This document shows positions 586 to 19,083 of a stretch of 19,374 nt of DNA, one piece after another. Source of the DNA: Candidatus Nanohaloarchaea archaeon (lineage in GTDB: Archaea; Nanohalarchaeota; Nanosalinia; Nanosalinales; Nanosalinaceae); the NCBI GenBank assembly GCA_042218075.1, contig JBDGRK010000032.1:1-19374 (forward strand), given 5' to 3'. Position numbers and translations under genes: made by a program. Position 1 is the first letter of the stretch; every line of letters starts with the position of its first letter. The notes beneath the pieces are model-generated. The model had not been told where the DNA came from. It did not search any database and saw only the letters and a program-made list of their open reading frames with translations.

Positions 586-1234
586 CGCCGATCACCTTCA
601 GATCCTCTATCGCGATCAGGTTTTCGGTTCCGATCTCAATCTCCTGCTCGTTTTCGATTATGGCGTCCCTGCCTATACCTTCATCTTCCATTTCAACTAC
701 TTCCGCGACCTCTCCGGCATGCCTTCCCCTAATAACCAGTACCTCTGCGCCTTCCTTTAGCTCTACTTCTTTTACAGAACCGTCGAACACTAGGGTGTTG
801 CCCGTAGAGTACTCGTCCCCGGTCCTGTAGTTTTCACCTGAATGAAGCCTGTAAACGTATTCTTCTCCCCGGGAGTCCTTGCCTGTGATCTTGGCCGCGA
901 CCCTGCTATCCTCAACCGGAACAAACTCAAGGTATTTTCCTCTTCTTACAGTCCTGTACTTTTCCTCCTTCTCCAGGATTTTGACTACATCCATGATGCC
1001 TATTCCCTCCTTGATATCCCTGATCCTGTCACCGTTTCTCTCCATATCGCCGTTCCTGACTATCTCTTTCGCTTCTTTCTCCGTGTCAGCGTATCCCAGT
1101 ACATCTCTTAAAAGCACAACTGCGGGTATCGCATCCTCACTGCTCCTTGAGCCTTTTATCGTGGAGACATACTTCGTCTCCTTCCTCTCTATCGGGTAAT
1201 GCTTTGGTGCGGGAAGTCTTTTCTGGTGCGTCAT
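578..1234 (-). CDS. rps4e: 30S ribosomal protein S4e (eS4)
   Basis: HQKRLPAPKHYPIERK N-terminus, LRDVLGYA, C-terminal KOW-like GRHAGEVA; lies between L24 and L5. Confidence 0.96.
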   Translation of the reverse strand: MTHQKRLPAPKHYPIERKETKYVSTIKGSRSSEDAIPAVVLLRDVLGYADTEKEAKEIVRNGDMERNGDRIRDIKEGIGIMDVVKILEKEEKYRTVRRGKYLEFVPVEDSRVAAKITGKDSRGEEYVYRLHSGENYRTGDEYSTGNTLVFDGSVKEVELKEGAEVLVIRGRHAGEVAEVVEMEDEGIGRDAIIENEQEIEIGTENLIAIEDLKVIGDE

Positions 1235-2001
1235 TCTTTATCCTCAACCTGGTTTTCAAGCCAGTCTATGAAAGTAGTCCTGTTCTTGTTGGATTTTTCG
1301 GCCTCAAGTACCTCTTCATAATCAACATCCTCCATTTCAGCAAGCTGATCCTTTGCATCACTGATGGTGCCGGAGACTATATCCTCGTAATCTACCGAAG
1401 TCCTAGGTTCAGTTTCCGTCTCTTCATCCACATCTTCATCTGCTTCTTCTACATCCCTTGATTCCTCTGCTTTATCTTCAACTTCTTCCTCCTCTTCGTA
1501 CTCTTCGTGAGCCCCTGACTCTCCTCCCTGCATCTGCTCCATCATCTCTTCCTCCTCGTCTTCCTCGAGAGCCTCTTCCAGTTCTTCCTCGTCGACCTCT
1601 ATAGAGGCGATGTCTTCCACGTCATACTTCTCAATCCTGTCCGTGTTTTCAACATTCAGGGCCACGAGCTGAAGGTTCGAAGGCCTGAGAGCTTTCTGTT
1701 GCTTAGATCCATCGGCTCTTTCCCTCTCAATACCATCAATGTATACAACTTCTTCCTCCCTGTCGATACTGTTTACAATACCCTCGGAACCCCTGTCGTC
1801 GCCTCTGACAACTTTCGCACGATCTCCCGTCCTGACCCTGATGTTCCTTGTCCCGAGTTCTTCTCTAAGCTCATTTGAAAGGTTCGCGGAGACCAGCCTA
1901 TCCTTTACGTGAAGCGGGGCGTTCTGCCTGTACTTCCTCTGCTTCGAGGGGTTGGTGCTCGAATTCCAGTCGCTGCTCCAGTCCTCAGTTCTCTGCGTCA
2001 T
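1231..2001 (-). CDS. rpl24: 50S ribosomal protein L24 (uL24) with a long acidic linker and extra C-terminal domain
   Basis: STNPSKQRKYRQNAPLH and KOW RVRTGDRAKVVRGDDRG; about 130 aa beyond the usual L24 core. Confidence 0.96.
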   Translation of the reverse strand: MTQRTEDWSSDWNSSTNPSKQRKYRQNAPLHVKDRLVSANLSNELREELGTRNIRVRTGDRAKVVRGDDRGSEGIVNSIDREEEVVYIDGIERERADGSKQQKALRPSNLQLVALNVENTDRIEKYDVEDIASIEVDEEELEEALEEDEEEEMMEQMQGGESGAHEEYEEEEEVEDKAEESRDVEEADEDVDEETETEPRTSVDYEDIVSGTISDAKDQLAEMEDVDYEEVLEAEKSNKNRTTFIDWLENQVEDKE

Positions 2002-2054
2002 TTGAAAACCCCGGGTTTTCTGCTATTCCGAAAATCTTCGATTTTCATCATCAT
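1998..2054 (-). CDS. Putative 18-aa bridging mini-ORF (MMMKIEDFRNSRKPGVFK)
   Basis: Its start overlaps the L14 stop (ATGA) and its stop overlaps the L24 start (ATGA). It spans the palindromic element. Confidence 0.4.
   Translation of the reverse strand: MMMKIEDFRNSRKPGVFK
2004..2046. repeat. Tandem double-palindrome element, copy 1
   Basis: GAAAACCC-C-GGGTTTTC, 9-nt spacer TGCTATTCC, GAAAATC-TTC-GATTTTC. Confidence 0.8.
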
Positions 2055-2449
2055 ACCACCTGTGAAGCGATTTTGCCGATCGGAGAGTACCTCTGGACTA
2101 CCTCCTTTGCGATCGGTCCTCTTGTAACGTTTCCTTTTGGAAGACCTGTCTCTTCGACCAGTACTGCGGCGTTGTCATCGAACTTTACAGTCAGTCCATC
2201 TGGCCTCTGGAACTCTTTTCTCTGCCGGACAATGACCGCCTCGTGTACCTGGTTCTTGACCTCCTGGTCTCCTCTGAGTATCTTTACCATGACCTTGTCT
2301 GCTATACCTGCGGAGTTTCTCCTGCTTCTCCTTCCTTTCTTCGACTGCACTCCGATTATCTCCAGTTTTTTCGCTCCCGAGTTGTCGGCGCAGGTCAGTT
2401 CCGCTCCGATGTCAAGGGTTCTAGTAATGTCTGATCCTATCGGTTTCAT
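2051..2449 (-). CDS. rpl14: 50S ribosomal protein L14 (uL14)
   Basis: CADNSGAK, AVIVRQRKEFQRPDG, FDDNAAV, GPIAKEV motifs. Confidence 0.98.
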   Translation of the reverse strand: MKPIGSDITRTLDIGAELTCADNSGAKKLEIIGVQSKKGRRSRRNSAGIADKVMVKILRGDQEVKNQVHEAVIVRQRKEFQRPDGLTVKFDDNAAVLVEETGLPKGNVTRGPIAKEVVQRYSPIGKIASQVV

Positions 2450-2733
2450 TCTTCATCTCCCTCTACAACTTCGGTTATAACCGAGCTCTTGGTTTTAGAG
2501 ATAGGTCTTGTCTCCTCAACTTTCACGAAATCTCCTTCCTCAACCTCAAGATCTTCCGGTACATGCGTTGTGATCTTGGTATTCCTCCTCTCGTACCTCT
2601 CGTACTTCGGAACTTTCTGGCTGTGCTCCCACCTCACAGTCGCGGACTTCTCCATCTTGGTAGAGATTACTTTGCCCGTGAAAGAGCTGCCTCTGGTAGG
2701 GAATTCTAGCTCAGTGGTTTTCTGTTCTGACAA
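2446..2733 (-). CDS. rps17: 30S ribosomal protein S17 (uS17)
   Basis: GKVISTKMEKSATV, PKYERYERR, ETRPISKTKS; TTG start preceded by a GAGGTG SD. Confidence 0.97.
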   Translation of the reverse strand: MSEQKTTELEFPTRGSSFTGKVISTKMEKSATVRWEHSQKVPKYERYERRNTKITTHVPEDLEVEEGDFVKVEETRPISKTKSSVITEVVEGDEE

Positions 2734-2774
2734 GACTTTTGCACCTCGATAAAGCGTGAACGCGTATCAAACTC

Positions 2775-2781
2775 TTTTAAA
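2775..2781 (-). promoter_or_regulatory. Possible TATA box for rps17 onward
   Basis: TTTAAAA on the minus strand about 45 nt upstream of the rps17 start, which would give a short leader containing the SD. Confidence 0.45.
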
Positions 2782-2893
2782 CCGCACCACGGGCGCTGAG
2801 AAAAACAGAGGTTTTCCCAATGCCGCCCGAGTATCGCCTTTCTTAAGAGATCCAGACAATAGACCTCCCCAGTCAGACGACTTCAAGCGGTTC
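2779..2893 (-). ncRNA. Putative Y-shaped structured RNA (sRNA or leader of rps17-rpl14-rpl24-rps4e-rpl5)
   Basis: Closing stem GAACCGC/GCGGUUU. Arm 1: GUCGUCU/AGGCGAU and GGGAGGUCUA/UGGAUCUCUU. Arm 2: CGGGCG/CGCCCG and UUGGGAAAAC/GUUUUUCUCAG. The G-U pairs only work on the minus strand. Confidence 0.65.
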
Positions 2894-2921
2894 ACTGATG
2901 TGACACAAATAGAAAATAATC

Positions 2922-2929
2922 TTTATAAA
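2922..2929 (-). promoter_or_regulatory. TATA box upstream of the structured RNA
   Basis: TTTATAAA about 30 nt upstream of the closing stem; predicted start near 2899. Confidence 0.6.
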
Positions 2930-2972
2930 CAGACTTTATGACTAAATTCATTCAGGCAGGATCTAGATTCAA

Positions 2973-2987
2973 TAGATATGCAATTGG
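2973..2987. repeat. 15-bp direct repeat, left copy
   Basis: TAGATATGCAATTGG, identical to 3760-3774. Confidence 0.9.
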
Positions 2988-3041
2988 AAGCCTCCAGAAC
3001 TGCGGGGAAAAATTTTACAGGTTCAAATTGAATTTATCTTC

Positions 3042-3728
3042 ATGGAAGATATTATTGCCGGAGACAAAGAGAAGAGCGAAGTAGTAAGCTTGAATGGCGC
3101 CATTAATGGAGAAGAAATAAATGTAAAACTTCAATTCTGGAAACCGGAAGGAATTTTTGCCGCATGGGAAATAGGAAGCCACGAAGGATATTTCAAGAAA
3201 GCCACTAGGACTTTTTCTGAAGGCGAGTACGCAACGTATTTAAATGAAGAAGGCCGTTTATTTCTGGGCAAAAAACCTCTAAACAAGAGAAATTATGATA
3301 AAATAACATTTATTGATTTAGACCGAGAAACTAACCAAAAAGTCAAAGATCAATATCAGGATATAAAGGCCTTCTATCAAAGTCCTTCAGGAAGTGCCAA
3401 AGGGCCGTTCGAAACAGTAAATCTGGATTTGGCACCTGATAATTGTGTATCGGGAGATTGCTATAAATCTAAAATGGATGCCTACTCTAATCAAAATGTA
3501 AATTTCTACTTTCAGCCTTGGAGGTTTCAGGAATCAAACGCGATATATTTTGCCTGGAAGTTTGCAGATAGGATAGGTATGTATGGCAGTTATGAACATG
3601 TTTTATGGCTAGACGGAGGGATTCCCTGTTTTGTGTATTTTGAGGAAGAAAGTATCCGTCAAAAAATAATGGATCAAAAGAAACAATTAAGAGGGAGCCT
3701 TGGAAACGGATTAAGAATTCAAGATTAA
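3042..3728 (+). CDS. Hypothetical protein, AT-rich, with an apparent internal duplication
   Basis: 228-aa ORF, visibly more AT-rich than the r-protein genes; no family recognised. Confidence 0.8.
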   Translation: MEDIIAGDKEKSEVVSLNGAINGEEINVKLQFWKPEGIFAAWEIGSHEGYFKKATRTFSEGEYATYLNEEGRLFLGKKPLNKRNYDKITFIDLDRETNQKVKDQYQDIKAFYQSPSGSAKGPFETVNLDLAPDNCVSGDCYKSKMDAYSNQNVNFYFQPWRFQESNAIYFAWKFADRIGMYGSYEHVLWLDGGIPCFVYFEEESIRQKIMDQKKQLRGSLGNGLRIQD

Positions 3729-3759
3729 TTCGGAATTTCCCACATCCCTCTAAATTGTG

Positions 3760-3774
3760 TAGATATGCAATTGG
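3760..3774. repeat. 15-bp direct repeat, right copy
   Basis: TAGATATGCAATTGG, identical to 2973-2987. Confidence 0.9.
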
Positions 3775-3780
3775 CAGTCC

Positions 3781-3828
3781 GAAAACTCGGTAGAGTTTTC
3801 TTGACTACAGAAAATTCCACGGATTTTC
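3781..3828. repeat. Tandem double-palindrome element, copy 2
   Basis: GAAAACTC-GGTA-GAGTTTTC, 9-nt spacer TTGACTACA, GAAAATTCC-AC-GGATTTTC. Confidence 0.8.
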
Positions 3829-3833
3829 GAAGA

Positions 3834-3850
3834 CCCGGATTTGAACCGGG
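3834..3850 (-). other. Isolated tRNA T-arm-like fragment
   Basis: Minus strand reads CCCGG-TTCAAAT-CCGGG, a canonical T stem-loop. No D or anticodon arm is visible upstream. Confidence 0.55.
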
Positions 3851-3905
3851 ATTCTGATAAATCATCTCTTATTGGCTTTTCAATATTCAAGACTAAAGTT
3901 CTTAC

Positions 3906-4457
3906 ATGTCATCAAAGAACGTCTTCTTAATCCACGGATTTGAGGGGAGTCCTGAAGATAACTGGTTTCCGTGGTTGAAGGACAAGCTGGAAGAGAAAGG
4001 TTATGAGGTAATCGTGCCAGATTTCCCAACCCCGGAAGACCAGACCCTGGAAAACTGGATGGATGTTTTCAAAGAGTACGAGGAAGAGTTGAACAGGAAT
4101 TCTATAGTTGTGGGCCACAGTCTTGGATGTCCTTTTATTCTTCACCTGCTCCAGGAAGGTTTCGAGGTTGAGAAAGCGATATTCGTGGCCGGATTTGTAG
4201 GCAAGATCGGAGACGAATATATTGACGAAGTCAATGAGGATATAGCCGGTAGAAAGTTTGATTGGGATAAAATTCGAGGAAATGCTGAAGAGTTTATCCT
4301 GATGCATTCAACTAACGATCCTTACGTGGATAGAGAGAAAGCGGACGAGCTGGAGGAGAAACTGGAAGCTAAATTAAACATTTACGAAGGATACAACCAC
4401 TTCAACGTGAGCGCGGGTTATACAGAGCTACCTGAAATCTTAGAATTTTTCTCTTAA
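3906..4457 (+). CDS. Alpha/beta hydrolase, RBBP9/YdeN family
   Basis: LIHGFEGSPEDNWFPWL, nucleophile elbow GHSLG, HSTNDPYV (Asp), NHFN (His). Confidence 0.93.
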   Translation: MSSKNVFLIHGFEGSPEDNWFPWLKDKLEEKGYEVIVPDFPTPEDQTLENWMDVFKEYEEELNRNSIVVGHSLGCPFILHLLQEGFEVEKAIFVAGFVGKIGDEYIDEVNEDIAGRKFDWDKIRGNAEEFILMHSTNDPYVDREKADELEEKLEAKLNIYEGYNHFNVSAGYTELPEILEFFS

Positions 4458-4468
4458 GAATCTTTAGC

Positions 4469-4753
4469 TCAATCCACGTACTCCCATTTACCCGGGAGGC
4501 TCTGGTCGATCCTGTCCTCCGGTCTTTCGTCGATCAGTTTGCCGTCCAGCTCCACTTCAGTTCCATCCGGGAGCTCGAATAGAAAAACTGAGATCTTCTT
4601 CTCCACTTTCTTTCCATCGATCTCCAGCATAGACCTTGTCTCGTCTTCAACTTCGCCAGAAATTCCTACCTGGCTCTCATCGGAAGACTCGATAACCTCT
4701 GCATGGAGTCCTATAAGTTCGTGTCGGGGAAGGTTATCGGGATTTATAGCCAT
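4469..4753 (-). CDS. rnp1: Ribonuclease P protein component 1 (Rpp29)
   Basis: NLPRHELIGLHAEV, GISGEVEDETRSML, LIDERPEDRI; usual position between aIF1 and S17. Confidence 0.95.
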   Translation of the reverse strand: MAINPDNLPRHELIGLHAEVIESSDESQVGISGEVEDETRSMLEIDGKKVEKKISVFLFELPDGTEVELDGKLIDERPEDRIDQSLPGKWEYVD

Positions 4754-4755
4754 CT

Positions 4756-5220
4756 CTACGGACCTATACCCTTATCTCCCATTACTCCGTAGGTGGCTCT
4801 AGTTACTACATCTGCCACACCTTCTGTATCTGGATCACCAGAGTTTTCTAGGTATCCGCTCTCACTGTAGACTTTATTGATGTATTGGGAAACTGCAGAG
4901 TGTGGATCTCCAGCCGATTCTTCAGGTAAATCTACTATAACTGCCTTTCCCGGAGTCAGGATGAAACTTCCAACTACCTCATCTCCCTGCGGTGTAACTT
5001 CAATTGTTTTGATCCCCAATCCATTATTTTCCGAAAAATACCTGAGAGCGGACGTGCCTTCGTATATCACTAATGTTTCATTTTCACCTTCTTCTACTTC
5101 ATCTACAGGCGGTACTCCTGAAGTATCGACATTTGCCATATCCGGATCCTGAAGCCCCTCAGATAAGTCATCTCTTATTCCATCTAAATCCCGTGAAGTC
5201 TTCGCTTCTAACTCTCTCAT
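4756..5220 (-). CDS. Hypothetical acidic protein inserted between aIF1 and Rpp29
   Basis: 154-aa ORF ending 2 nt before the rnp1 start, with its own TATA-like box; no family recognised. Confidence 0.75.
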   Translation of the reverse strand: MRELEAKTSRDLDGIRDDLSEGLQDPDMANVDTSGVPPVDEVEEGENETLVIYEGTSALRYFSENNGLGIKTIEVTPQGDEVVGSFILTPGKAVIVDLPEESAGDPHSAVSQYINKVYSESGYLENSGDPDTEGVADVVTRATYGVMGDKGIGP

Positions 5221-5239
5221 TATAATTCTACAACCAGGT

Positions 5240-5252
5240 AAAAAATTTTAAA
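5240..5252 (-). promoter_or_regulatory. TATA box for a leaderless transcript, next to a U-run after aIF1
   Basis: Minus strand TTTAAAA 26-32 nt upstream of ATG 5220, followed by TTTTTT. Confidence 0.5.
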
Positions 5253-5263
5253 CCAGTAATCAC

Positions 5264-5572
5264 TCAGTTCTGGACCTCTATCTGTTCCTCGGAGAATCCC
5301 TCGGCACCGAGGACTTCCTTGATCCTCCTGGTGTGATCTCCCTGCAGCTGTATCTGGCCGTTCTTGGCGGTTCCACCACAGGCCAGTTTCGACTTCAGAG
5401 TTGAGCTTAATTCATCAAGGTCAACATCTTCAGAGAGACCTTCGACGACGGTCATCTCCTTGCCGAAGCTTCGAGTGTCAATTTTTACAGTGATTGTCTG
5501 TTCGTCCCGTGCGATGTCGTCGCAGACGCACAGGTCTTGAGGCATACCGCATTTAGAACAGGTATCAGACAT
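5264..5572 (-). CDS. Translation initiation factor 1 (SUI1/aIF1 family)
   Basis: MSDTCSKCGMPQDLCVC, FGKEMTVVEG, LKSKLACGGT, IQLQGDH; start moved to ATG 5572. Confidence 0.96.
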   Translation of the reverse strand: MSDTCSKCGMPQDLCVCDDIARDEQTITVKIDTRSFGKEMTVVEGLSEDVDLDELSSTLKSKLACGGTAKNGQIQLQGDHTRRIKEVLGAEGFSEEQIEVQN

Positions 5573-5582
5573 TTTAGTATCT

Positions 5583-5777
5583 TTAATTCTCGTTGAGAAC
5601 AGTTTTGATCCTTGCAATGGTTTTCTTCATTTCGCCTATCCTGCCAGGGTTCTCAGCGAAGCCCCCGGTCTCTATCTGGCCTCTCTCCTCTACAATCTCC
5701 TTTTTGAGGTCGTTCATCTTTTCCTTAAGATCTGGTTCATTCATGTCCCGAATCTCGTCAGCCGTAAGTATCGCCAC
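5583..5777 (-). CDS. rpl29: 50S ribosomal protein L29 (uL29)
   Basis: AILTADEIRDM and ENPGRIGEMKKTIARIKT; likely GTG start at 5777 after GGTG. Confidence 0.95.
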   Translation of the reverse strand: MAILTADEIRDMNEPDLKEKMNDLKKEIVEERGQIETGGFAENPGRIGEMKKTIARIKTVLNEN

Positions 5778-5802
5778 AGTTAAACACCATTCAAGCTCGC
5801 TT

Positions 5803-6852
5803 TTATTCTTTCTTATTTTCAAGCCATTCTATGAAGGTTTTCCGCTCCTTGTTATCTTTCTCAGATTCAAGCGCCTGTTCATAGTCGGGATCTTCAAGCT
5901 CTTCCAGCATTTCTTTCGCATCACTGATCGTTCCCGATACAATTTCTTCATAATCCGCAGAACTTCCAGAGCCAGTTCCTGTCTCCTCATCTACATCATC
6001 CTCCTCCGCTTCTTCTGCATCCTCTGATTCCTCAGTTTCATCTTCAGTATCTTTGTCTTCCGATTCAGTCTCGATTCCTCCTTCCTCAAATACCTCCCTG
6101 ACTTCATCCTTCGAAATATCAGAGGTATTGATTTCCTCTAGCTCCTCTACCGCTCTTTCAATCTCCGCGGCAGTCATATTCTCCGCCTCTTCAATTATCT
6201 TCGCAATTCTTTCCGGCTTCTCCGCGGCTTCCTCATCCTCCAAAGTTTCATGGAAAAGCTCATCCTCCACGTCAACATCGCGGTGCATGAACTCCGGCAT
6301 CTCCTCCATAAGCCTTACTTTCACTCCGATCGCACCAGGTTTTGTCCTAGCCAGTTCGTATCCCCTGTCAACGTTCTGCTTCGCTGTGTCGCCACAGATT
6401 TTGACGTAACCGAAGGAGAACTTCTCCGTTCTTCCACGATTTCCGCTCAGCTTGCCTGAGATCTCGATCTCCGCCCCGGGAACGCCTGCTTCCTTGATCC
6501 TCCGCAGGTAGGTGTAACCCACTCTCTTGGGCTGCCCTCCCTTCTCAAGCCATGAGGCCATTGCCTCTGCGACAATATTCGCGTCGGCATCCGGTTCTTC
6601 AATCTCGTTTACTTCGATCTGGGGGTTCTCAAAGTCGAACTCTCTCTCGGTCTTTTCAGTCAGTTCCTTGATCCTCGACCCACCTCTACCGATGACCAGT
6701 CCCGGCCTCTGCGCGTGAATTACAAGTTTTGTGGAAGTAGGCGTTCTCTCGATATCGGCGTGAGAGTAACCAGCTCCCTCCAGTTCATCCTTCAGGTATT
6801 CGTGGAGTCTTACCTTCCTTGCGCCTTTCTCTATAAATTCTCTCTTCTGCAT
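5803..6852 (-). CDS. rps3: 30S ribosomal protein S3 (uS3) with an acidic extension and extra C-terminal domain
   Basis: KH domain RPGLVIGRGG, GAEIEISGKL, KPGAIGVKV; about 160 aa of extension. Confidence 0.97.
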   Translation of the reverse strand: MQKREFIEKGARKVRLHEYLKDELEGAGYSHADIERTPTSTKLVIHAQRPGLVIGRGGSRIKELTEKTEREFDFENPQIEVNEIEEPDADANIVAEAMASWLEKGGQPKRVGYTYLRRIKEAGVPGAEIEISGKLSGNRGRTEKFSFGYVKICGDTAKQNVDRGYELARTKPGAIGVKVRLMEEMPEFMHRDVDVEDELFHETLEDEEAAEKPERIAKIIEEAENMTAAEIERAVEELEEINTSDISKDEVREVFEEGGIETESEDKDTEDETEESEDAEEAEEDDVDEETGTGSGSSADYEEIVSGTISDAKEMLEELEDPDYEQALESEKDNKERKTFIEWLENKKE

Positions 6853-11288: not shown

Positions 11289-12707
11289 TCAGCCCTTGAT
11301 GTTTACTACAGGCCGCATCTGGGCGACTTTCTCTCCTATTCCGAGCTCGTCGCTAACATTAATTACCTCGTCAATATCCTTGTAGACGCCAGGAGCCTCT
11401 TCTGCGATGGTAGAGCCTGAAGCTGCCTTCACAAGTATTCCCTCTCTCTCAAGCTCGTTCTGGACGTCCTCCCCCCAGTAATCCTGCTTCGCCTGCGTCC
11501 TCGACATCAGTCTTCCCGCTCCATGAGCTGTAGAACCGAATGAGATTTCCGGGGATTTCTCTCCTCCCGAGAGTATATAGCTCGAGGTTCCCATGCTGCC
11601 GGGGATCAGCACCGGCTGCCCGACCTCCGAGTATACATCCGGTACTTCTTCTCTTCCCACAGGCATCGCCCTTGTGGCTCCCTTCCTGTGGACTATCACC
11701 TCTCTTTCCTTCCCATCGATCTCGTGGATTTCCTCCTTGGCTATGTTGTGGCACACGTCATACACCATCTCGACCTCCGGCGAGTTAAATATCGTATTTA
11801 GGCACTCTCTCACCCCCTGTGTGATCGCCTGTCTGTTGCACCACGCGTAATTGGCAGCGGCGTACATCGCTTTCTTGTAATCCTGCGCTGCTTCGTCTTC
11901 TATAGGCGCGTATATCAGGTTCTTCTCCGGTATAGCGTCGACTATCTCGGGGTACTCCTGCTCGAATCTTCTCAGGTATTTGGTGCATGTCTCGTGTCCG
12001 AGTCCTCTTGAACCCGAGTGAACCATCACGACTACCTGCCTCTCTTCGAGACCGTAAGCTTCAGCGACTTCTTCATCGAAAATATTCGAAACAACCTGGA
12101 CCTCAAGGAAGTGGTTTCCAGAGCCGAGAGATCCGACCTGGTTCAGACCTCTCTCAATCGCGTCATCTGGAACTTTCCGGTGGTCGCCGGGAAGTCTTCC
12201 GTTCTCCTCGCACCTTTCAAGATCTGCTTCCTTAGCTTCTCCCTGATCGAGCATCCACTCCATTCCTCTATCAAGTATGTCTCTGAGATCTTCCTTGTCA
12301 GTCTCAAGATAACCTCCCTTGCCCAGACCGACAGGTATCTTGCTGTAGAGGATGTTTGCGAGCTGCTGCTCTCTTCCCTGGATGTCATCCGCGGTTAAAT
12401 CGGTTTTAAGGACTCTCACGCCGCAATTCACGTCGAAGCCGATTCCACCAGGGCTTATGATTCCATTTTCTGCGTCAAAAGCTGCTAAGCCTCCTATTGG
12501 AAAGCCGTAGCCCTGGTGGCCGTCGGGCATAACGATAGAGTACTCCTGGATTCCTGGAAGTGCAGCCATGTTCCTTACCTGCTCCAGTGTATCATCATCT
12601 TTTATCTCCTCCAGAAGCTCTTCTGAAGCGTATACCCTCGCCGGGACGTTCATCTCTTCATCCTGCGGAATCTCGTAGATATTGTCAGATACTTTCTCCA
12701 GCTGCAT
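11289..12707 (-). CDS. rtcB: RNA-splicing ligase RtcB
   Basis: MPDGHQGYGFPIG, GFDVNCG, GSGNHFLE, HSGSRG, HNIAK, HRKGAT, HGAGR, EEAP..YK. Confidence 0.98.
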   Translation of the reverse strand: MQLEKVSDNIYEIPQDEEMNVPARVYASEELLEEIKDDDTLEQVRNMAALPGIQEYSIVMPDGHQGYGFPIGGLAAFDAENGIISPGGIGFDVNCGVRVLKTDLTADDIQGREQQLANILYSKIPVGLGKGGYLETDKEDLRDILDRGMEWMLDQGEAKEADLERCEENGRLPGDHRKVPDDAIERGLNQVGSLGSGNHFLEVQVVSNIFDEEVAEAYGLEERQVVVMVHSGSRGLGHETCTKYLRRFEQEYPEIVDAIPEKNLIYAPIEDEAAQDYKKAMYAAANYAWCNRQAITQGVRECLNTIFNSPEVEMVYDVCHNIAKEEIHEIDGKEREVIVHRKGATRAMPVGREEVPDVYSEVGQPVLIPGSMGTSSYILSGGEKSPEISFGSTAHGAGRLMSRTQAKQDYWGEDVQNELEREGILVKAASGSTIAEEAPGVYKDIDEVINVSDELGIGEKVAQMRPVVNIKG

Positions 12708-12746
12708 ACGACTAATATTGGGCGGGAAGTTTTATAGAAAATTGCT

Positions 12747-12977
12747 CTATGTTCTATCCCTCCCATACCACTGCTCCGGCATAAGACCTGCCACCACCAG
12801 AACTATACCAGCCACAATACCTGCTGTACTGATGGAATTAAAGTTGTAGTTGGTGCCATCGCCTGATAATACATCTTCGGCCTGTTCGACTGCGCCCTGC
12901 TTCTGTTCGGAGTGAAGATAGCCAAACACTCCTGCGAGAAGCAGCAGGGTTCCCAAAATTAGGATTGACATTCTCAT
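12747..12977 (-). CDS. Small two-TM membrane protein
   Basis: Two hydrophobic segments around a polar loop; co-oriented between archease and rtcB. Confidence 0.7.
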   Translation of the reverse strand: MRMSILILGTLLLLAGVFGYLHSEQKQGAVEQAEDVLSGDGTNYNFNSISTAGIVAGIVLVVAGLMPEQWYGRDRT

Positions 12978-13041
12978 CTTCTTAACAAAAGATTAAGCTC
13001 CAGATATACAGTAATTGTTTCACTTGAAAGCTTTATTCTAT

Positions 13042-13458
13042 CTATATATCCAGAACTGCTTCTATTATCCATCCCTCTCCTTTCTCGTAATCAACCTTCA
13101 TCTCGTTGTATGTCGGGGCCTTTACATCCTGATAGCTTGCTCCCTCCGTTATCGGATCAGCCCAGACTGTTGCCTCCAGAGAATGGCCGCTTTGCATCTC
13201 CTCTATCTCGATATCTTCTGCATGGCAAACGACTACTCCCTCTGTCTCCTGGAGGAAGATTAACCTATCGAGGAAATCGAAAAGCAGCGATTCAAGCTTC
13301 TCCGATTCAATATTTAGACTGTGCCTGTACTCCCCAGCATCAGGATCTGCACCTACAATTTCCGCAAAAGCCTCTACAGATCTGGAGAAAGCTTCCTCCA
13401 GCGACTTTCCTTCCGCCCTGAACTTTTCATCCGCAGTGTGTGAAAGAATCTCGTACAT
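13042..13458 (-). CDS. Archease (RtcB cofactor)
   Basis: YEILSHTAD, LLFDFLDRLIF, VKAPTYNEM, C-terminal LDI; close to rtcB. Confidence 0.96.
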   Translation of the reverse strand: MYEILSHTADEKFRAEGKSLEEAFSRSVEAFAEIVGADPDAGEYRHSLNIESEKLESLLFDFLDRLIFLQETEGVVVCHAEDIEIEEMQSGHSLEATVWADPITEGASYQDVKAPTYNEMKVDYEKGEGWIIEAVLDI

Positions 13459-14039
13459 CAGGACCTTTCCGGGAAACGCTTTTCGAGCTTTTGTCTCATA
13501 AACTCTGCCTGTTCCTCAAGGTTCATATCAGTATTGTCGATCACCAGATCGTAGATTTCATCATCTTCCAGACTTATCCCGTAGTAGTCCATGTATCTTT
13601 CCTCATCCCTTGAATCTCTCTTCTCCACTATTTGCCTCGCCTCAACAGCATCCATATCCTCTCTCTCCGCCAGCCTCCTTGCCCTCTCTTCCTCATCCGC
13701 GACCACCTTGATCCTTAAATCTGCGTTGCTTCCGAGCACCCAGCCGGTCAATCTACCATCTATAACACAGTCCTGCTCCAGACCTCTCTCAAGCGTCCTC
13801 CTGTCGACAGCAAGATCGACCTCCTTCTCCGCCTCATCAGAGAGCTCAAAATCCTCCAAACCTCTCTCCTCTGCCACGCTGTAAAAAACATCGCTCGCAG
13901 AAAAATGCTCCAGCTCAAGAACCCCAGCTATCTGTTCTCCAAGTTTTCCCTTCCCGGCTCCAGCCTTTCCATCCACTGTGATTACAAGATCAGAATTTTT
14001 CTCATGGTCTCCCTGGAACTCTTCTATATAGCTCTCCAT
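13458..14039 (-). CDS. cmk: Cytidylate kinase (archaeal type)
   Basis: P-loop DGKAGAGKG, VIDGRLTGW, ERARRLAERE, RYMDYYGI, YDLVIDNT. Confidence 0.92.
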   Translation of the reverse strand: MESYIEEFQGDHEKNSDLVITVDGKAGAGKGKLGEQIAGVLELEHFSASDVFYSVAEERGLEDFELSDEAEKEVDLAVDRRTLERGLEQDCVIDGRLTGWVLGSNADLRIKVVADEEERARRLAEREDMDAVEARQIVEKRDSRDEERYMDYYGISLEDDEIYDLVIDNTDMNLEEQAEFMRQKLEKRFPERS

Positions 14040-14551: not shown

Positions 14552-16045
14552 TCAGTTTAAATCGGTTAAAAGTGCCCTGAGCACTTCTCTGTCAACCTCG
14601 TCGAATATCCTCCATACCGACACTGAGTAGAGAAGCAGAACAAGAAAATTCGCAGTCAGTGAAAGTTTCAGGGGCATAATTCTGAACAGCCTAAATATTG
14701 TAAGAGTCATAACAGCGCCCAGTGAAAATACTTTAAGGTGCCTCAGACTGAAAGGCTGCATACCCTCCCTCAGGTAGAGCAGAAAGAGTTCCGCCACGTT
14801 GTTTAAAATGTAGGAAGCAGTGTAGGCAATTGCCAGCCCTAGAAGGCCGTATTCAATTGTCATGAAAGTCGTGATTCCAAGTATGATTAAAGTAAGGAAG
14901 AACTGCATGAGCGACTTCACTCTCTGGTTGTCAGTCATGGAGAGCAGGAGCCCGACGCTACCAATAGTACTTGCAGTAAACTGTCCCATAACTACAATTG
15001 GAAGAATCAACGCGTACCTTGCGTACTCCGGCGAGAAAACCTCGAGTATGTGTAGATTGTAAACCGCTATTAAGACAGTTATCGGAAGATTCAGTGAAAG
15101 GATCAGCACCGTGGTTCTGCGGTAGAGCTGATTTATGGAGGATAGCCTGCCCTGGTCGTATAGCTTCGTGGCTATGGGCGGAAATATCTGGTTGACGGAC
15201 TTAAGCGGCCACCTCGCCAAGGCGCTTATAGCGATCGAGACGCCGAATACACCTGCCTCAACCGGTTTGAGAAAAACGGCCATGAATACGAAGAACACGT
15301 GGAACTGCACTGAAACCATTGCTGAATTAAGGGTTGAGAAAAGGCTGTAATCCAGGAAATCCAAGAGGTCCTTTCTATCCGCATCAAGAGAAGGGATCGA
15401 GTAATCGCTGTATCTGTAGAGAAAGAGAATCCCTGTTAGACTCGCAAGACCAAACGCCAGAACCACGGAGGACCATAACGCGAGAGCTGATGAAGACACT
15501 AATAGAACTGTTAGGAGAACAATCATGAGTTTGAGAAGAGGCCCAATTACCTGCCTCAGAAGGTTATAGATCCTGATCCTCCCCATCGACTTGAAGTAGT
15601 TGACCGAAACGAAGAAGAAAGAGGAGAAAAACAGGTTCACCGCGAAGAGGTATATCAGTAACTCGTGGGAAGATTCCAGCAGCGTGTTGGCGATTATGAA
15701 GTCCCTGAAGAACACGACCAGAAGCCCTAAAACAAGAGAGAACAAGCTGAAAATTCCCAAGCTGGTGGTTAAAACCAGGTTTCTTGAAGTGAGGCTGTAG
15801 CGCGGAAGGGACCTCTGTCCTCCGACCAGCAACCCGAAAAACATGAACCTCACGAAGTTCGTCATTCTTTCAAAGACCGTTAGAACTCCATAAACAGCCG
15901 GACCAGCGAAGAAGTTTATTACATACGCGAAAACTGTCAGGAAGATTCTCCTGAGAGATAGAGAGAAAAAAGTGATTCCAGCACCGTCCACGACATCCCT
16001 GAAAAGCTTTTCTACCTCTTCACTCTCAAGTTTTTCCTCAGCCAT
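14552..16045 (-). CDS. MOP-superfamily flippase / polysaccharide exporter
   Basis: 497 aa with many TM segments; GPAVYG, AGVFGVS, IFPPIATKLY, YGLLGLAIA. Confidence 0.88.
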   Translation of the reverse strand: MAEEKLESEEVEKLFRDVVDGAGITFFSLSLRRIFLTVFAYVINFFAGPAVYGVLTVFERMTNFVRFMFFGLLVGGQRSLPRYSLTSRNLVLTTSLGIFSLFSLVLGLLVVFFRDFIIANTLLESSHELLIYLFAVNLFFSSFFFVSVNYFKSMGRIRIYNLLRQVIGPLLKLMIVLLTVLLVSSSALALWSSVVLAFGLASLTGILFLYRYSDYSIPSLDADRKDLLDFLDYSLFSTLNSAMVSVQFHVFFVFMAVFLKPVEAGVFGVSIAISALARWPLKSVNQIFPPIATKLYDQGRLSSINQLYRRTTVLILSLNLPITVLIAVYNLHILEVFSPEYARYALILPIVVMGQFTASTIGSVGLLLSMTDNQRVKSLMQFFLTLIILGITTFMTIEYGLLGLAIAYTASYILNNVAELFLLYLREGMQPFSLRHLKVFSLGAVMTLTIFRLFRIMPLKLSLTANFLVLLLYSVSVWRIFDEVDREVLRALLTDLN

Positions 16046-16076
16046 ATATAAAAATTCAGAGCAGTCAATTTAAGCT

Positions 16077-16502
16077 ATGGTAGAACATGATACTTGTTTC
16101 CCTGAACCGGTTACCGGCGCTCTGATACTTAATGAGAAGGATGAGATATTCCTGATGAAGTCTCCGAAGTGGGATGGACAGTGGCTCGTTCCCGGAGGCC
16201 ACGTCGAGAAGGGTGAAAGGATTGAGGAATGTGTAAAGAGAGAAGTTGAAGAGGAAGTAGGTCTGGAAGTAGATGATATAGAACTTGTAACTGTGCTGGA
16301 AGGCATGCCGGAGAGGTTCGAGAGGGATACTCACTTTATATTTCTGAACTACTCCTGCAGAGCTGGTGAAAAGGAAGTGGAGCTTGACGAGGAAGAAGCA
16401 GTAGATTATGTCTGGATGGATCCCAAAGAAGCCTTGGAAAGCGAGAAGGAAATAAATCAAAGTACGAGAAAGTTCATACAAGAATATCTGGAAAAAAGTT
16501 AG
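16077..16502 (+). CDS. NUDIX hydrolase
   Basis: Nudix box GGHVEKGERIEECVKREVEEEVG. Confidence 0.96.
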   Translation: MVEHDTCFPEPVTGALILNEKDEIFLMKSPKWDGQWLVPGGHVEKGERIEECVKREVEEEVGLEVDDIELVTVLEGMPERFERDTHFIFLNYSCRAGEKEVELDEEEAVDYVWMDPKEALESEKEINQSTRKFIQEYLEKS

Positions 16503-16506
16503 AACT

Positions 16507-16620
16507 GCGCCCAAGCCAGGGTAAGGTCGAAATATGAAGTACCAACCCGGCTGAAATCGCCGAGCCAACTTCACATTTCGGCAAACGCCCAGACCAGACT
16601 TAACAGGGCTTGTTGAACAC
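16507..16620 (-). ncRNA. Putative structured RNA of unknown class
   Basis: 13-bp stem CGAAAUGUGAAGU/ACUUCAUAUUUCG topped by UGGCUCGGC/GCCGGGUUG; possible closing stem GUGUUCAA/UUGGGCGC; the G-U pairs favour the minus strand. Confidence 0.55.
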
Positions 16621-16676: not shown

Positions 16677-16826
16677 ATGGTTATGAAGCTGCAGGTTCAA
16701 GGACCACACAGCCAGGCCAGAATCACAGTACCCAAAGCCATGCGGAACGCCAAAGGATGGAAAGATGGTCAGGAACTCGAATGGAAAATCAACAATAAAG
16801 GAAACCTGGAGCTGGAAGAGAAATAA
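16677..16826 (+). CDS. AbrB/MazE/SpoVT-family DNA-binding protein (49 aa)
   Basis: Not in the ORF track. MVMKLQVQGPHSQARITVPKAMRNAKGWKDGQELEWKINNKGNLELEEK matches the ITVPK...GW..G.EL pattern. The stop overlaps the next ATG. Confidence 0.85.
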   Translation: MVMKLQVQGPHSQARITVPKAMRNAKGWKDGQELEWKINNKGNLELEEK

Positions 16827-17510
16827 TGGCTGAAGAAATAGATACAGAATTCAATGTCTCTAAAGTAGTGTTAAGGCCTGAAAACTTCCTGGAGAAAGTA
16901 GCAAACAGGGAATGGGGTCAGGGAGATGTCGTGGTATTCGATGAGGCCGGAGCCGGAATGAGTGCCAAAGCCCACATGACCAAAAAGAACCGTATAATCG
17001 ACCAGGTACTCCAAACCTTCAGGCGTCAGAACATAGCTGTAATCTTTACAGTTCCTTCCAAGTCGAATGTGGATAAATCGGTCCGGAGACTGCTTCATAC
17101 CTATATCGAGACCAAGGGAATTGACTACAACAAGAAACAGAATCTCTTGAAGTGGCTGGAAATGGATTACAACCAGAAACAATAAAATATACTACAAGTA
17201 TAACAAGAAGAGAGATGAGAATGGAGCTGTCAAGAAGATAAAGACGGTGAAAGTCGGGAAACCAGATCAGGAATTGATTGACAGTTATGAGTCGAAAAGA
17301 TCACGTTTCCAGGATAGAAAGAATAAAGAGTTCTACAATGAGCTTCAGGAAAAGATGTCAGATCCTTCAAATGATGGCAGTGGGAAGAGTAAAAAACAAA
17401 AGATAAAGGAAGAAATTGAAGAGGAAGATGGTGAGACTTCAACTAAAGAATTGGCTAAAAAGTATGACACTGATCAGAGCTATGTCTCACAGATAAAAAA
17501 TCAGGTTTGA
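16826..17510 (+). pseudogene. Truncated, frameshifted virus/plasmid-type P-loop ATPase with C-terminal HTH
   Basis: Walker B VVVFDEAG and a downstream FRRQNIAVIFTVP strand are present but there is no Walker A. After a +1 shift near 17180 the frame stays open (NKIYYKY...) to STKELAKKYDTDQSYVSQIK. Confidence 0.7.
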
Positions 17511-17650
17511 CAGAAATAATTTAGTTTAGTATAAGAATCCAGTGTGTTCTAACTCAAGCTAAATACTAAAGAAGTACTCAGTTAACGGAATATTCCGGTA
17601 TAGGTCTCCATTTCATTATAAACCCAATTTGTCTAATCTTTGTAATCCAA

Positions 17651-17953
17651 ATGAAAGAAAACAAAATAAATGAAGCCGGAACGTGCTATAGAGCTGGAGG
17701 CCACCAAACCGTAGAAGACGGAAACGGAATCGAGATATGCATCAGATGCGGTGAAAAATCTGAACCAACTAATGCAGTAAACAGAAAAAATGGAAAAAGG
17801 AGAACTGGAAAAAAAGATCTATCACAGGAATAACTTGAAATCAAACTAAAGGAATTAGGATTCACTAACCTCAAACAATACACAGAAAAATATAATGAAA
17901 CCCACCAGGAAAAAGATCCTGGCAAGTTGCCTTTAAAAATTTCTAAAACATGA
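17651..17953 (+). pseudogene. Small Zn-finger-like protein, possibly with a premature stop
   Basis: C-x5-H...CIRC motif; TAA at 17831-17833 is followed by 39 more open in-frame codons (LEIKLKELGF...). Confidence 0.4.
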
Positions 17954-18035
17954 TTATAATTTAAAAGATAATTATCAACAGCTTCTACAATTGATTTGGT
18001 AAAATTTTATATTGAATAAATAAGTTATAGGTTTC

Positions 18036-18407
18036 ATGAATCACAACAAATTTGTTTCAGCGATAATTAAGGGGATTATCGGTTCCGGAATCGCTATCTT
18101 AATTACAGTACTATTTCACAGCTTTATTATATCGACTTCAGCACTTGAATGGGCTTTAATTGCAGTAACTATGGGATCTTTTTTCTCAGGATTCTTTGCC
18201 GAATATACCGATAAAATAGTATGTGAAGGGGAAGAAAACGATAGGAAAGATAATTATATTACTTTAGCATCGGTATTCTTCATTCTGGGAATAACGGATG
18301 TAATGGATAGTAGAATTGCTTCCGGTCTCTACGTTTTAGGCAGTATATTGTTCGGAATAGCAGCATACAGGGAATGGGAAGGAAATATTTCAGATTACCT
18401 AATTTAA
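18036..18407 (+). CDS. Hypothetical membrane protein (about 4 TM)
   Basis: Four hydrophobic segments in 123 aa. Confidence 0.75.
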   Translation: MNHNKFVSAIIKGIIGSGIAILITVLFHSFIISTSALEWALIAVTMGSFFSGFFAEYTDKIVCEGEENDRKDNYITLASVFFILGITDVMDSRIASGLYVLGSILFGIAAYREWEGNISDYLI

Positions 18408-18417
18408 TCGATATTTC

Positions 18418-19083
18418 ATGTGTGGCCGGAACTCACTATACGTTAATGGAAAAACTTTGAAGGAAAGATATTCAGCCTCTCTGGATATAGAATGGAGTAA
18501 ATCGTACAACATAGCTCCTGGAAACAGTCAGCCAGTGGTCAAAAAGAACTCTCCAAAGACCCTGGAAAGAATGAAATGGAACTTTATTCCTTCATTCGCT
18601 AAATCAGAAAAAGAGAAACGGAAATGGAGAAAAAGATCCTTGATCAATGCCAGAATTGAAACAGTTGAGGATAAAAACACGTTCAAGAAAAGCTTCCAGG
18701 AACGAAAATGTTTGATCCCATCCACAGGTTTCTACGAATGGAAAGATGAGGGAAACCCTAGGAAAACACCGTACCACATCCAACCAGGTAAAGGAAGAAT
18801 ATTCTCGATGGCCGGATTCTACAATGATGGAACTTTTGTAATCCTGACAAAGGATTCTGAAAACAGTGAAATGAGTGAGATCCACGACAGAACCCCTGTC
18901 ATACTGGAGCAAAGTATGGAAGATCCATATCTAAACGGTGAGGTTTCCAGGAAAGAGCTTGAAGATTCAAGCTATGATAACTTGGAGATTGAACAGGTTT
19001 CCAGAAAGGTCAATAATCCGGAAAATGATTCAAAGGATGTCCTAAAATTGGATTCACGTCAATCCAGTTTCCGAGACATGTGA
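18418..19083 (+). CDS. SOS response-associated peptidase (SRAP, YedK/HMCES family)
   Basis: N-terminal MCGR, YNIAP, INARIET, GFYEW, IHDRTPVIL, VSRKVN. Confidence 0.96.
   Translation: MCGRNSLYVNGKTLKERYSASLDIEWSKSYNIAPGNSQPVVKKNSPKTLERMKWNFIPSFAKSEKEKRKWRKRSLINARIETVEDKNTFKKSFQERKCLIPSTGFYEWKDEGNPRKTPYHIQPGKGRIFSMAGFYNDGTFVILTKDSENSEMSEIHDRTPVILEQSMEDPYLNGEVSRKELEDSSYDNLEIEQVSRKVNNPENDSKDVLKLDSRQSSFRDM

Follow-up and report, generated by a model that had tools for sequence, protein, structure and literature searches.

A predicted four-helix module at the termini of uL24, uS3 and other proteins of Nanohaloarchaeota, and its possible role as a docking tag

Extensions of ribosomal proteins that differ by lineage are already known. 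The terminal element of the stalk proteins P0 and P1 fishes for partners and binds translational GTPases; the ubiquitin-type domains fused to ribosomal proteins are N-terminal, adopt the beta-grasp fold and are cleaved off; and dockerins are extracellular, calcium-binding modules with cohesin as their partner. In our study, a stretch of 19,374 nucleotides (the window; contig JBDGRK010000032.1, C26 of our genome G000) from the assembly of a Candidatus Nanohaloarchaea archaeon (GCA_042218075.1; 1.10 Mb, 40 contigs, 92% complete) was found to encode the ribosomal proteins uL24 and uS3, both of which end in the same module of about 50 amino acids. The unusual feature is that one domain, predicted to fold on its own, is shared throughout the phylum by RNA polymerase, a membrane protein and four to six ribosomal proteins drawn from both subunits. 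Our preferred reading, to which we give a probability of about 0.4, is that the module is a docking tag on a tether, which serves to bind a shared partner or to self-associate.

The module of uL24 and uS3 and its predicted fold

An earlier note, made from the letters of the window, had claimed that the same domain of about 50 residues ends both proteins, and this was borne out. The tails of uL24 and uS3 were identical at 36 positions in an ungapped BLASTP alignment of 53 residues (E 2e-20, composition-based statistics), and both ends read exactly as the note had quoted them. Its hand count of 35 identities in 50 residues equals the number of invariant columns from D4 to E53 in the alignment of the two modules. 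The Glu/Asp-rich linkers that it described were present before both modules (Table 1), and the cores of the two proteins had a net charge of only 0 to +1 versus the strongly acidic linkers. The linkers did not match the module profile (hhalign E 0.23 for uS3 and 0.41 for uL24) and contained no cryptic second copy; therefore, the similarity is that of a discrete domain and not of composition. Both cores were equivalog-level matches, uL24 to TIGR01080 (101 bits, cut-off 47.65) and uS3 to PRK04191 (230 bits, cut-off 147) and TIGR01008 (212 bits, cut-off 150.25). The module-coding end of the uS3 gene overlaps the listed TTG start of uL29.

The fold was predicted with AlphaFold2 (AF2). With five sequences, the uL24 copy was found to form four helices (Table 1), and three of the five models reached a predicted local distance difference test score (pLDDT) of only 55-59. 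With 76 sequences, the five models ranged from 91 to 94 (best pLDDT 94.0, predicted template modelling score 0.75), and the helices were placed at residues 5-10, 13-22, 28-37 and 42-52. These models give a confident prediction of an autonomously folding four-helix domain, in agreement with the small helical module on flexible arms of both subunits that the note had proposed. The signature in 255 unique copies was D-Y-x2-[ILV]-[VL]-x-G-T-[VI]-x-[ED]-[AV]-K ... P-D-[YF]-x2-[LV]-L-E-A-E-K-x-[NG]-K-[DN]-R-K-T-L-x2-W-L-E. Glu34 and Arg40 were conserved in 100% of these copies, followed by Lys16 (91%), Thr42 (90%), Tyr4 (89%), Asp26 (87%) and Lys38 (85%), with Leu31 within the range of 85-91%. Thr11, Asp26 and Thr42 probably act as helix N-caps, and the Glu/Arg/Lys cluster would form either a structural salt-bridge network or a binding site.

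The module had no significant match to a characterised domain in Pfam, NCBIfam or the PDB. In Pfam-A (hmmscan of five bare modules, E <= 10), no family was found for the four C-terminal copies of the genome, and only unrelated weak matches (DUF5344, DUF3364 and PP2C_C) were found for its N-terminal copy. The identity with HeH, LEM or SAP domains suggested in the note was not supported. None of the five copies matched a SAP, LEM, HeH or Rho_N profile at this threshold, and the model contained four helices over about 50 residues versus the two-helix helix-extended-helix of 35-45 residues. No SAP, LEM or HeH entry was present among the VIA-align or Foldseek matches listed, and no HTH (helix-turn-helix) family stood out among them. 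The best Foldseek matches to the PDB were at E 6.0 and 6.8, and the best VIA-align matches against 48,161 chains were at Z 6.5 and 5.6, in flat lists of alpha-solenoid-like helical hairpins. The ankyrin, DARPin, PPR and IFT rows of this flat list (Z 4.3-6.5) lie below the level that is meaningful for helical models, and no Pfam repeat family was found at E <= 10.

A ubiquitin-like beta-grasp was rejected, since it does not agree with the all-helical model, which has no strand; single ubiquitin was matched at E 0.3-0.8, with the invariant Glu and Arg aligned to glycines, and the matches to polyubiquitin profiles (E down to 8e-14) were an artefact, being the sum of nine repeated matches of about 6 bits. 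AF1502 (5a1q) was matched by the 5-copy profile (E 0.35) but no longer by the 76-copy profile at E <= 1. The ribosomal stalk element PF00428 was matched neither by the module-bearing P0 nor by the bare modules, and these contained no terminal GLGxLF-type peptide. The match to the NCBIfam family LipDrop_Rv1109c was sub-threshold (14-21 bits versus a cut-off of 110) and probably compositional. PHROGs gave weak matches to families of unknown function only, phrog_29632 in 3 of 8 queries (E 0.0015-0.017) and phrog_1983 (E 0.0011). A pattern scan of IMG/VR found no relative, and tblastn of two copies against 50,697 phage records gave nothing at E <= 1.

Carriers, distribution and evolution of the module

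The earlier note had proposed a search with a hidden Markov model (HMM) built from the two copies. Over all 20,281 six-frame open reading frames (ORFs) of at least 30 amino acids in the genome, such a model found five proteins at E <= 3.4e-8, with the next best at E 0.75, and iteration with a five-copy HMM found no further carrier. The carriers were uL24, uS3, eS24 (PF01282), uL10/P0 (PF00466 and PF17777) and a bitopic membrane protein of 223 amino acids. The note had named uL24 and uS3 as the carriers; both carry the module, but this framing was too narrow, the module being promiscuous. It was terminal in all five proteins, joined to the core by a linker of 17-112 amino acids (37-61% Asp+Glu), and its own net charge in these halophilic copies was -11 to -12.

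The P0 of this genome ends in the module, and its P1, the only stalk P1 ending read, matches PF00428 and ends in ...EGLGDLF. In five relatives, P0 was found to have a bare acidic tail (four genomes) or no tail (genome G028), and the GLGxLF-type peptide was present in none of them. The canonical C-terminal factor-binding peptide of P0 is missing in all six nanohaloarchaeal genomes looked at (L002:3493-4734 on contig C36 of G000; L098-L102), and the genus of the window has capped the P0 tail with the module. An ORF of 481 amino acids without a Pfam family lies between the P0 and P1 genes (L002:4773-6218, same contig), two stalk genes that are usually adjacent.

The 223-residue protein begins with the module, which is cytoplasmic, and continues through an acidic linker and a single hydrophobic helix into a DsbC_N-like ectodomain (PF10411, E 1.3e-6). 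A gene for Fe/Mn superoxide dismutase lies directly 3' of the gene for this membrane protein in 8 of 14 loci (L003:3179-4530 and 13 related), and one paralogue carries a thioredoxin/DsbA domain. The ectodomain, the paralogue and the neighbouring dismutase hint at a redox context for the protein.

In relatives, the five-copy profile found the module to be present rather than absent, in 40 of the 41 nearest genomes and in 69 of 70 Nanohaloarchaeota genomes, with 1-11 matches each. All 47 loci from named GTDB contigs belonged to Nanohaloarchaeota (including Nanohalobium, Nanoanaerosalina, Asbonarchaeum danakilense, SG9 and M3_22), in a scan that was pattern-based and biased to close relatives. 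A search of 1.84 billion cluster representatives gave 325 proteins at E <= 1e-3 and 124 at E <= 1e-10. The names given by the sources in this search were all nanohaloarchaeal, each entry being called either 'hypothetical protein' or after the ribosomal protein that hosts the module, and none of the precomputed Pfam accessions lay over the module. Full-text literature searches, with supplementary tables outside their scope, found no description of the module on nanohaloarchaeal ribosomal proteins, and no mention of it was found in the term-matched passages of PMC8116511, PMC13195033, bioRxiv 10.1101/2025.08.05.668663 and PMC8672879.

Carrier classes were assigned for the best 150 representatives (Pfam at E <= 1e-5). 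Ribosomal proteins accounted for 29 of them, with eS24 (14) the most frequent, followed by eL31 (8), uL24 (3) and uS3, uL22, eS6 and bacterial-type bL31 (1 each). Seven belonged to other families (KaiC-type ATPase, RpoA'' with Rpb1 domain 5, C2H2 zinc finger, MoxR AAA, GINS51, HSBP1-like and caudovirus prohead protease S78), and 114 were without a family. An N-terminal module followed by one membrane helix was found in 45 of the 150 by a crude hydrophobic-window rule, 2-4 tandem copies were found in 20, and in most the module lay within 15 residues of a terminus.

In a census of seven genomes (G000 and six spanning three families), 22 of 46 module proteins were confirmed as ribosomal. The module was present on uS3 and on the membrane protein with the N-terminal module in 7/7 genomes, on uL24 in 5/7, on eL31 in 4/7 and on eS24 in at least 4/7. 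RpoA'' contained it in all three genomes of two deeper families and in none of the four of the window's family, and P0 only in the window's genus (2/2). Further carriers in the census were a winged helix-turn-helix (wHTH) protein, a bPH and zinc-ribbon protein, a zinc-ribbon protein, a PilB/T2SSE ATPase and a thioredoxin/DsbA-type membrane protein with an N-terminal module. In ribosome structures, uL24, uL22 and eL31 are positioned around the tunnel exit and uS3 along the mRNA entry, and eS24 and eS6 are found on the small-subunit body, facing the solvent.

The high identity of the two copies had been attributed in the note to a shared partner or to gene conversion. Recent conversion was excluded because the four C-terminal copies of the genome differ at most synonymous positions in the DNA alignment, and purifying selection, as judged from these sequences, rather than conversion keeps the copies alike. 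Within a family, orthologous copies on the same carrier had an identity of 0.57-0.59 versus 0.47-0.48 for different carriers in one genome. The nearest neighbour of 44 census copies was on the same carrier in 12, in the same genome in 15 and elsewhere in 17. For uS3, uL24 and eS24 in four genomes of the window's family, identity between carriers of the same genome was 0.609 versus 0.574 after shuffling of the genome labels (p about 0.007, 5,000 shuffles), in a test of 12 sequences from kin that are not independent. This co-variation is modest; it is as expected for a shared partner towards which the copies co-evolve, and it is also compatible with occasional old conversion.

The sole genome of the phylum without a match was G028 (93% complete), which belongs to a lysine-rich, non-acidic lineage. 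Its uS3 contained a Lys/Glu linker and a C-terminal segment that aligned to the profile over 44 columns (hhalign E 1.8e-4, versus 0.23 and 0.41 for the acidic linkers of the window; probability 48%), with the invariant E and R plus K and T in register and a net charge of +6 versus -11 to -12 in the window genome. This tail is probably a diverged copy of the module. The uL24 of G028 has a charged tail and no module. Because uS3 keeps an aligned copy in G028 and uL24 none, we consider the module not to be merely a halophilic device and the uS3 copy to be the oldest; it seems to have existed before the lysine-rich lineage split off. The uS3 tail of G028, used as a query for deeper relatives that are not halophilic, retrieved only itself. 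Outside the archaea, a 'type B 50S ribosomal protein L31' (P0126; NCBI MFB6226321.1) in a metagenome-assembled genome of Candidatus Paceibacteria, of the candidate phyla radiation (CPR), was found to end in the module after a Gln/Glu/Lys-rich linker, which suggests a transfer between domains or a binning error (a mis-binned contig).

Diverged relatives were also found among haloviruses. A viral structure library gave matches with a template modelling score (TM) of 0.71-0.73 and a root-mean-square deviation of 1.3-2.3 A over 47-54 columns, sub-threshold at E 0.7-1.2, one of which was L7TK25 of Halorubrum sodomense tailed virus 2 (HSTV-2). Over the 1,192 six-frame ORFs of the HSTV-2 genome, the best match of the 255-copy HMM was the ORF containing HSTV2_66 (gp66; 140 amino acids; E 4.6e-5), which, by the virus and the equal length of 140 amino acids, is probably L7TK25 (TM 0.71). 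HSTV2_102 was the second match (E 0.0014), and both proteins keep the invariant Glu and the Arg-x-Thr. With hhalign, HSTV2_66 had a probability of 82% (E 1.1e-5 over the H3-H4 half) and HSTV2_102 one of 7% (E 0.005). Only four close homologues of HSTV2_66 were found, none with a family name. In a language-model look-alike search, two independent copies of the module were nearest to clusters of proteins of 44-71 amino acids, at scores of 0.82-0.84 that count as leads only (threshold 0.9). DUF8129 (PF26450, Pfam 38.1) was present on 12-13% of the members of the viral clusters, or on none, and on 46-81% of the members of the archaeal clusters; the clusters with DUF8129 had scores of 0.83-0.84 and 181-187 shared features. 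No paper mentioning DUF8129 was found in the literature search. The viral and CPR copies hint at an exchange of the module within hypersaline communities.

Possible role of the module

If the module is a docking tag, the lineage-specific, independently folding four-helix head would sit at the end of a long, charged, presumably disordered tether. The heads would project from the solvent-exposed termini of proteins of both subunits, from the cytoplasmic N-terminus of the membrane protein and, in relatives, from RNA polymerase A'', ATPases and DNA-binding proteins. The conserved polar patch (the invariant Glu and Arg, two near-invariant Lys and the Thr) would bind one common partner, which may be a factor or a second module copy. 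Such contacts would tether the machines of translation, and those of transcription in the deeper families, to one another and to the membrane in these very small cells.

We favour this reading because folded heads, often in tandem, are borne at the ends of long charged tethers on surface proteins of large machines and on the cytoplasmic end of a membrane protein, and because the polar residues survive the reversal of net charge. Terminal tethered heads and tandem copies are as expected of a binding module that builds avidity. Constraint beyond folding is suggested by two wholly invariant residues, Glu34 and Arg40, in so acidic a domain. Portability to the CPR bL31, the caudovirus prohead protease and HSTV-2 gp66 also speaks for docking, as does the P0 tail, the classical 'fishing line', which in the window's genus ends in the module instead of the factor-binding peptide. 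The docking or tethering role proposed in the earlier note is the best reading at hand, helped by the membrane, RNA polymerase A'' and ATPase carriers and by the tandem arrays, but self-association could not be shown: the prediction of a two-copy complex gave 0.46, 0.01 and 0.33 in three runs, with a median of 0.33 versus a mark of 0.42 (controls 0.00-0.01), values that weigh on neither side.

Several points weigh against docking. That the module binds, what it binds and the tethering that would follow are inferred. No structural relative of the fold is informative (Z at best 5.6-6.5; Foldseek E at best 6-6.8 in the PDB), and therefore no function can be transferred. Charged tails without the module were found on P0 in four other genera and on uL24 in G028, so the adaptation may lie primarily in the tail, with the module as a secondary addition. 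The invariant Glu and Arg could be a purely structural salt bridge. The carriers are heterogeneous and depend on the genus (P0 in the window's genus only, RpoA'' in two families only), a pattern as easily explained by a generic accessory as by a specific network. The signal of co-variation is small, and it is drawn from kin that are not independent.

A passive role is an unlikely alternative that keeps some force. The charged tail and its folded cap would then be a solubility or assembly aid, an intramolecular chaperone or an 'entropic bristle' for aggregation-prone ribosomal and other nucleic-acid-binding proteins, the cap protecting the disordered end without a specific partner. Tails that exist with and without the module agree with this, as does the enrichment of carriers in basic nucleic-acid-binding cores (those of uL24 and uS3 are at 0 to +1), and in eukaryotes, ubiquitin fused to eL40 or eS31 aids assembly. 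However, a passive cap has no need for invariant surface Glu, Arg and Lys across 255 copies, and it does not account for a module that persists in the lysine-rich lineage at the opposite net charge and that is also present on the cytoplasmic end of a membrane protein, on ATPases, on viral proteins and in tandem arrays.

It is similarly doubtful that the module is an accessory nucleic-acid-binding domain of the SAP/HeH/LEM kind, which would make extra contacts to rRNA, mRNA or DNA in molar salt and anchor the membrane protein to the nucleoid or to ribosomes. Many carriers are indeed nucleic-acid machines (ribosomal proteins, RpoA'', GINS51 and the wHTH, C2H2 and zinc-ribbon proteins), the invariant Arg and the conserved Lys and Thr surround a helix-turn-helix-like H3-turn-H4, and a small N-terminal helical domain followed by a linker and a transmembrane helix is the layout of the HeH/LEM proteins of the eukaryotic inner nuclear membrane. 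The net charge of -11 to -12 in the halophilic copies argues against it, as do the lack of any SAP, LEM, HeH or HTH match in Pfam (E <= 10, five copies) or among the fold matches listed, and the long tethers, which lead away from the rRNA-bound cores and would be odd for rRNA contact.

That the module is an evolutionary by-product, a mobile mini-domain that duplicates easily, does little by itself and reached permissive termini through recombination or gene conversion, is very improbable: the patchy, genus-dependent carrier set, the 15 of 44 copies with a nearest neighbour in the same genome and the viral and cross-domain copies would suit it, whereas the retention in 69/70 genomes at 1-11 matches each, synonymous sites that diverged while the protein was conserved, the greater likeness of same-family orthologues (0.57-0.59) than of carriers within one genome (0.47-0.48) and a uS3 copy that appears older than the split from the lysine-rich lineage all speak against it.

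The reading of the module as a docking tag can be extended to a cell-wide tethering code, which we regard as a speculative and rather improbable extension. In it, the heads on uS3, eS24, uL24/eL31/uL22, P0, RNA polymerase A'' (in the deeper families) and the DsbC_N-like membrane protein would bind each other or one hub, coupling transcription to the mRNA-entry side of the small subunit and mooring the tunnel exit of the large subunit to the membrane, and haloviruses and a CPR bacterium would have borrowed the plug. If the module is a docking tag, it would show how nanosized symbionts with reduced genomes can arrange translation, transcription and the membrane although they have very few factors dedicated to this, and its 50 amino acids would serve as a handle for pull-downs and for in situ structural studies of the few nanohaloarchaea in culture. 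As a mere solubility cap, it would still be a clean case of modular adaptation of ribosomal proteins.

Genomic setting and comparison with known systems

The minus strand of the window was found to contain the archaeal S10/spc ribosomal-protein cluster, with uL3, uL4, uL23, uL2, uS19, uL22, uS3, uL29, aIF1/SUI1, Rpp29, uS17, uL14, uL24, eS4 and uL5 (Table 1). The operon is broken between Rpp29 and uS17 by two plus-strand genes. This segment (3042-4457) looks like inserted DNA because the GC content falls to 0.38 in 3001-4000 versus 0.45-0.51 in the flanks. An orphan ORF sits between aIF1/SUI1 and Rpp29, and genes for RtcB RNA ligase, archease and a cytidylate-kinase-like protein are clustered just upstream of the ribosomal cluster. 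Two orphan ORFs are followed by a stretch of low GC (0.36-0.37 in 17001-19000), with an ORF of 119 amino acids that has a Zot-like match and a gene for an SRAP peptidase; this stretch may be an integrated element.

Table 1. Positions of the two module-bearing genes, their parts and neighbouring features in the window
Feature	Position	Strand	Details
uL24 gene	1231-2001	-	256 aa (translation)
uL24 core, residues 1-124	1630-2001	-	Pfam PF16906 Ribosomal_L26, residues 15-124 (E 1e-18), KOW; NCBIfam TIGR01080
uL24 acidic linker, residues 125-200	1402-1629	-	76 aa, 54% Asp+Glu, net charge -37
uL24 C-terminal module, residues 201-253	1243-1401	-	hmmsearch E 1.3e-36; AF2 of this copy: four helices, pLDDT 87
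uL24 residues 254-256 and stop codon	1231-1242	-	
uS17	2446-2733	-	
Orphan ORF	3042-3728	+	228 aa, no Pfam
Serine hydrolase	3906-4457	+	PF06821
Rpp29	4469-4753	-	
Orphan ORF	4756-5220	-	154 aa, no Pfam match
uL29	5583-5822	-	Pfam PF00831
uS3 gene	5803-6852	-	349 aa (translation)
uS3 core, residues 1-184	6301-6852	-	KH and S3 C-terminal domain; Pfam KH_2 16-87, Ribosomal_S3_C 99-180; NCBIfam PRK04191
uS3 acidic linker, residues 185-296	5965-6300	-	112 aa, 44% Asp+Glu, net charge -41
uS3 C-terminal module, residues 297-349	5806-5964	-	hmmsearch E 4e-34; AF2 with 76 sequences: pLDDT 94.0; stop codon 5803-5805
RtcB, archease, cytidylate-kinase-like gene	11289-14039	-	
Orphan ORF	14552-16045		497 aa
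Orphan ORF	16065-16574		169 aa
Low-GC stretch	16826-19083		119-aa ORF with Zot-like match PF05707 (E 3.7e-6, 27.0 bits, cut-off 20.3)
SRAP peptidase gene	18418-19083		

Among the known systems, DUF8129 is carried by the look-alike clusters, which are small haloarchaeal and haloviral proteins, and a halovirus protein was found to be a relative of the module in structure and sequence. However, the scores are at the level of leads, and no source names any module-bearing protein DUF8129. The module may correspond to DUF8129, and it may represent, among nanohaloarchaea, a mini-domain that is spread more widely over haloarchaea and their viruses. The tails of the stalk proteins P0 and P1 (archaeal aP0/aP1; PF00428) also have a conserved terminal element, in several copies on the ribosome and on flexible acidic linkers, and in the window's genus the P0 tail itself ends in the module; the stalk element is a short peptide on stalk proteins only, whereas the module is a folded four-helix domain, as modelled, of about 50 amino acids that extends beyond the stalk, to other proteins of both subunits and to proteins that are not ribosomal.

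The fusions Ub-eL40, Ub-eS31 and FUBI-eS30 likewise place one small domain on ribosomal proteins of both subunits, whereas the module is C-terminal on ribosomal proteins, all-helical in the model and set on long linkers. The SAP, LEM and HeH domains share with it a small helical module on flexible linkers at termini, and the membrane carrier, with its module, linker and transmembrane helix, is laid out as the HeH-linker-transmembrane proteins of the inner nuclear membrane are; the module differs in having no profile match, four predicted helices and a strongly acidic character. Dockerins are compared for the way they work only. In contrast to them the module is cytoplasmic, and it has no sequence relation to them, but like them it is small and is joined through linkers to the ends of many proteins that are otherwise unrelated, in some cases in tandem, which points to a shared receptor.

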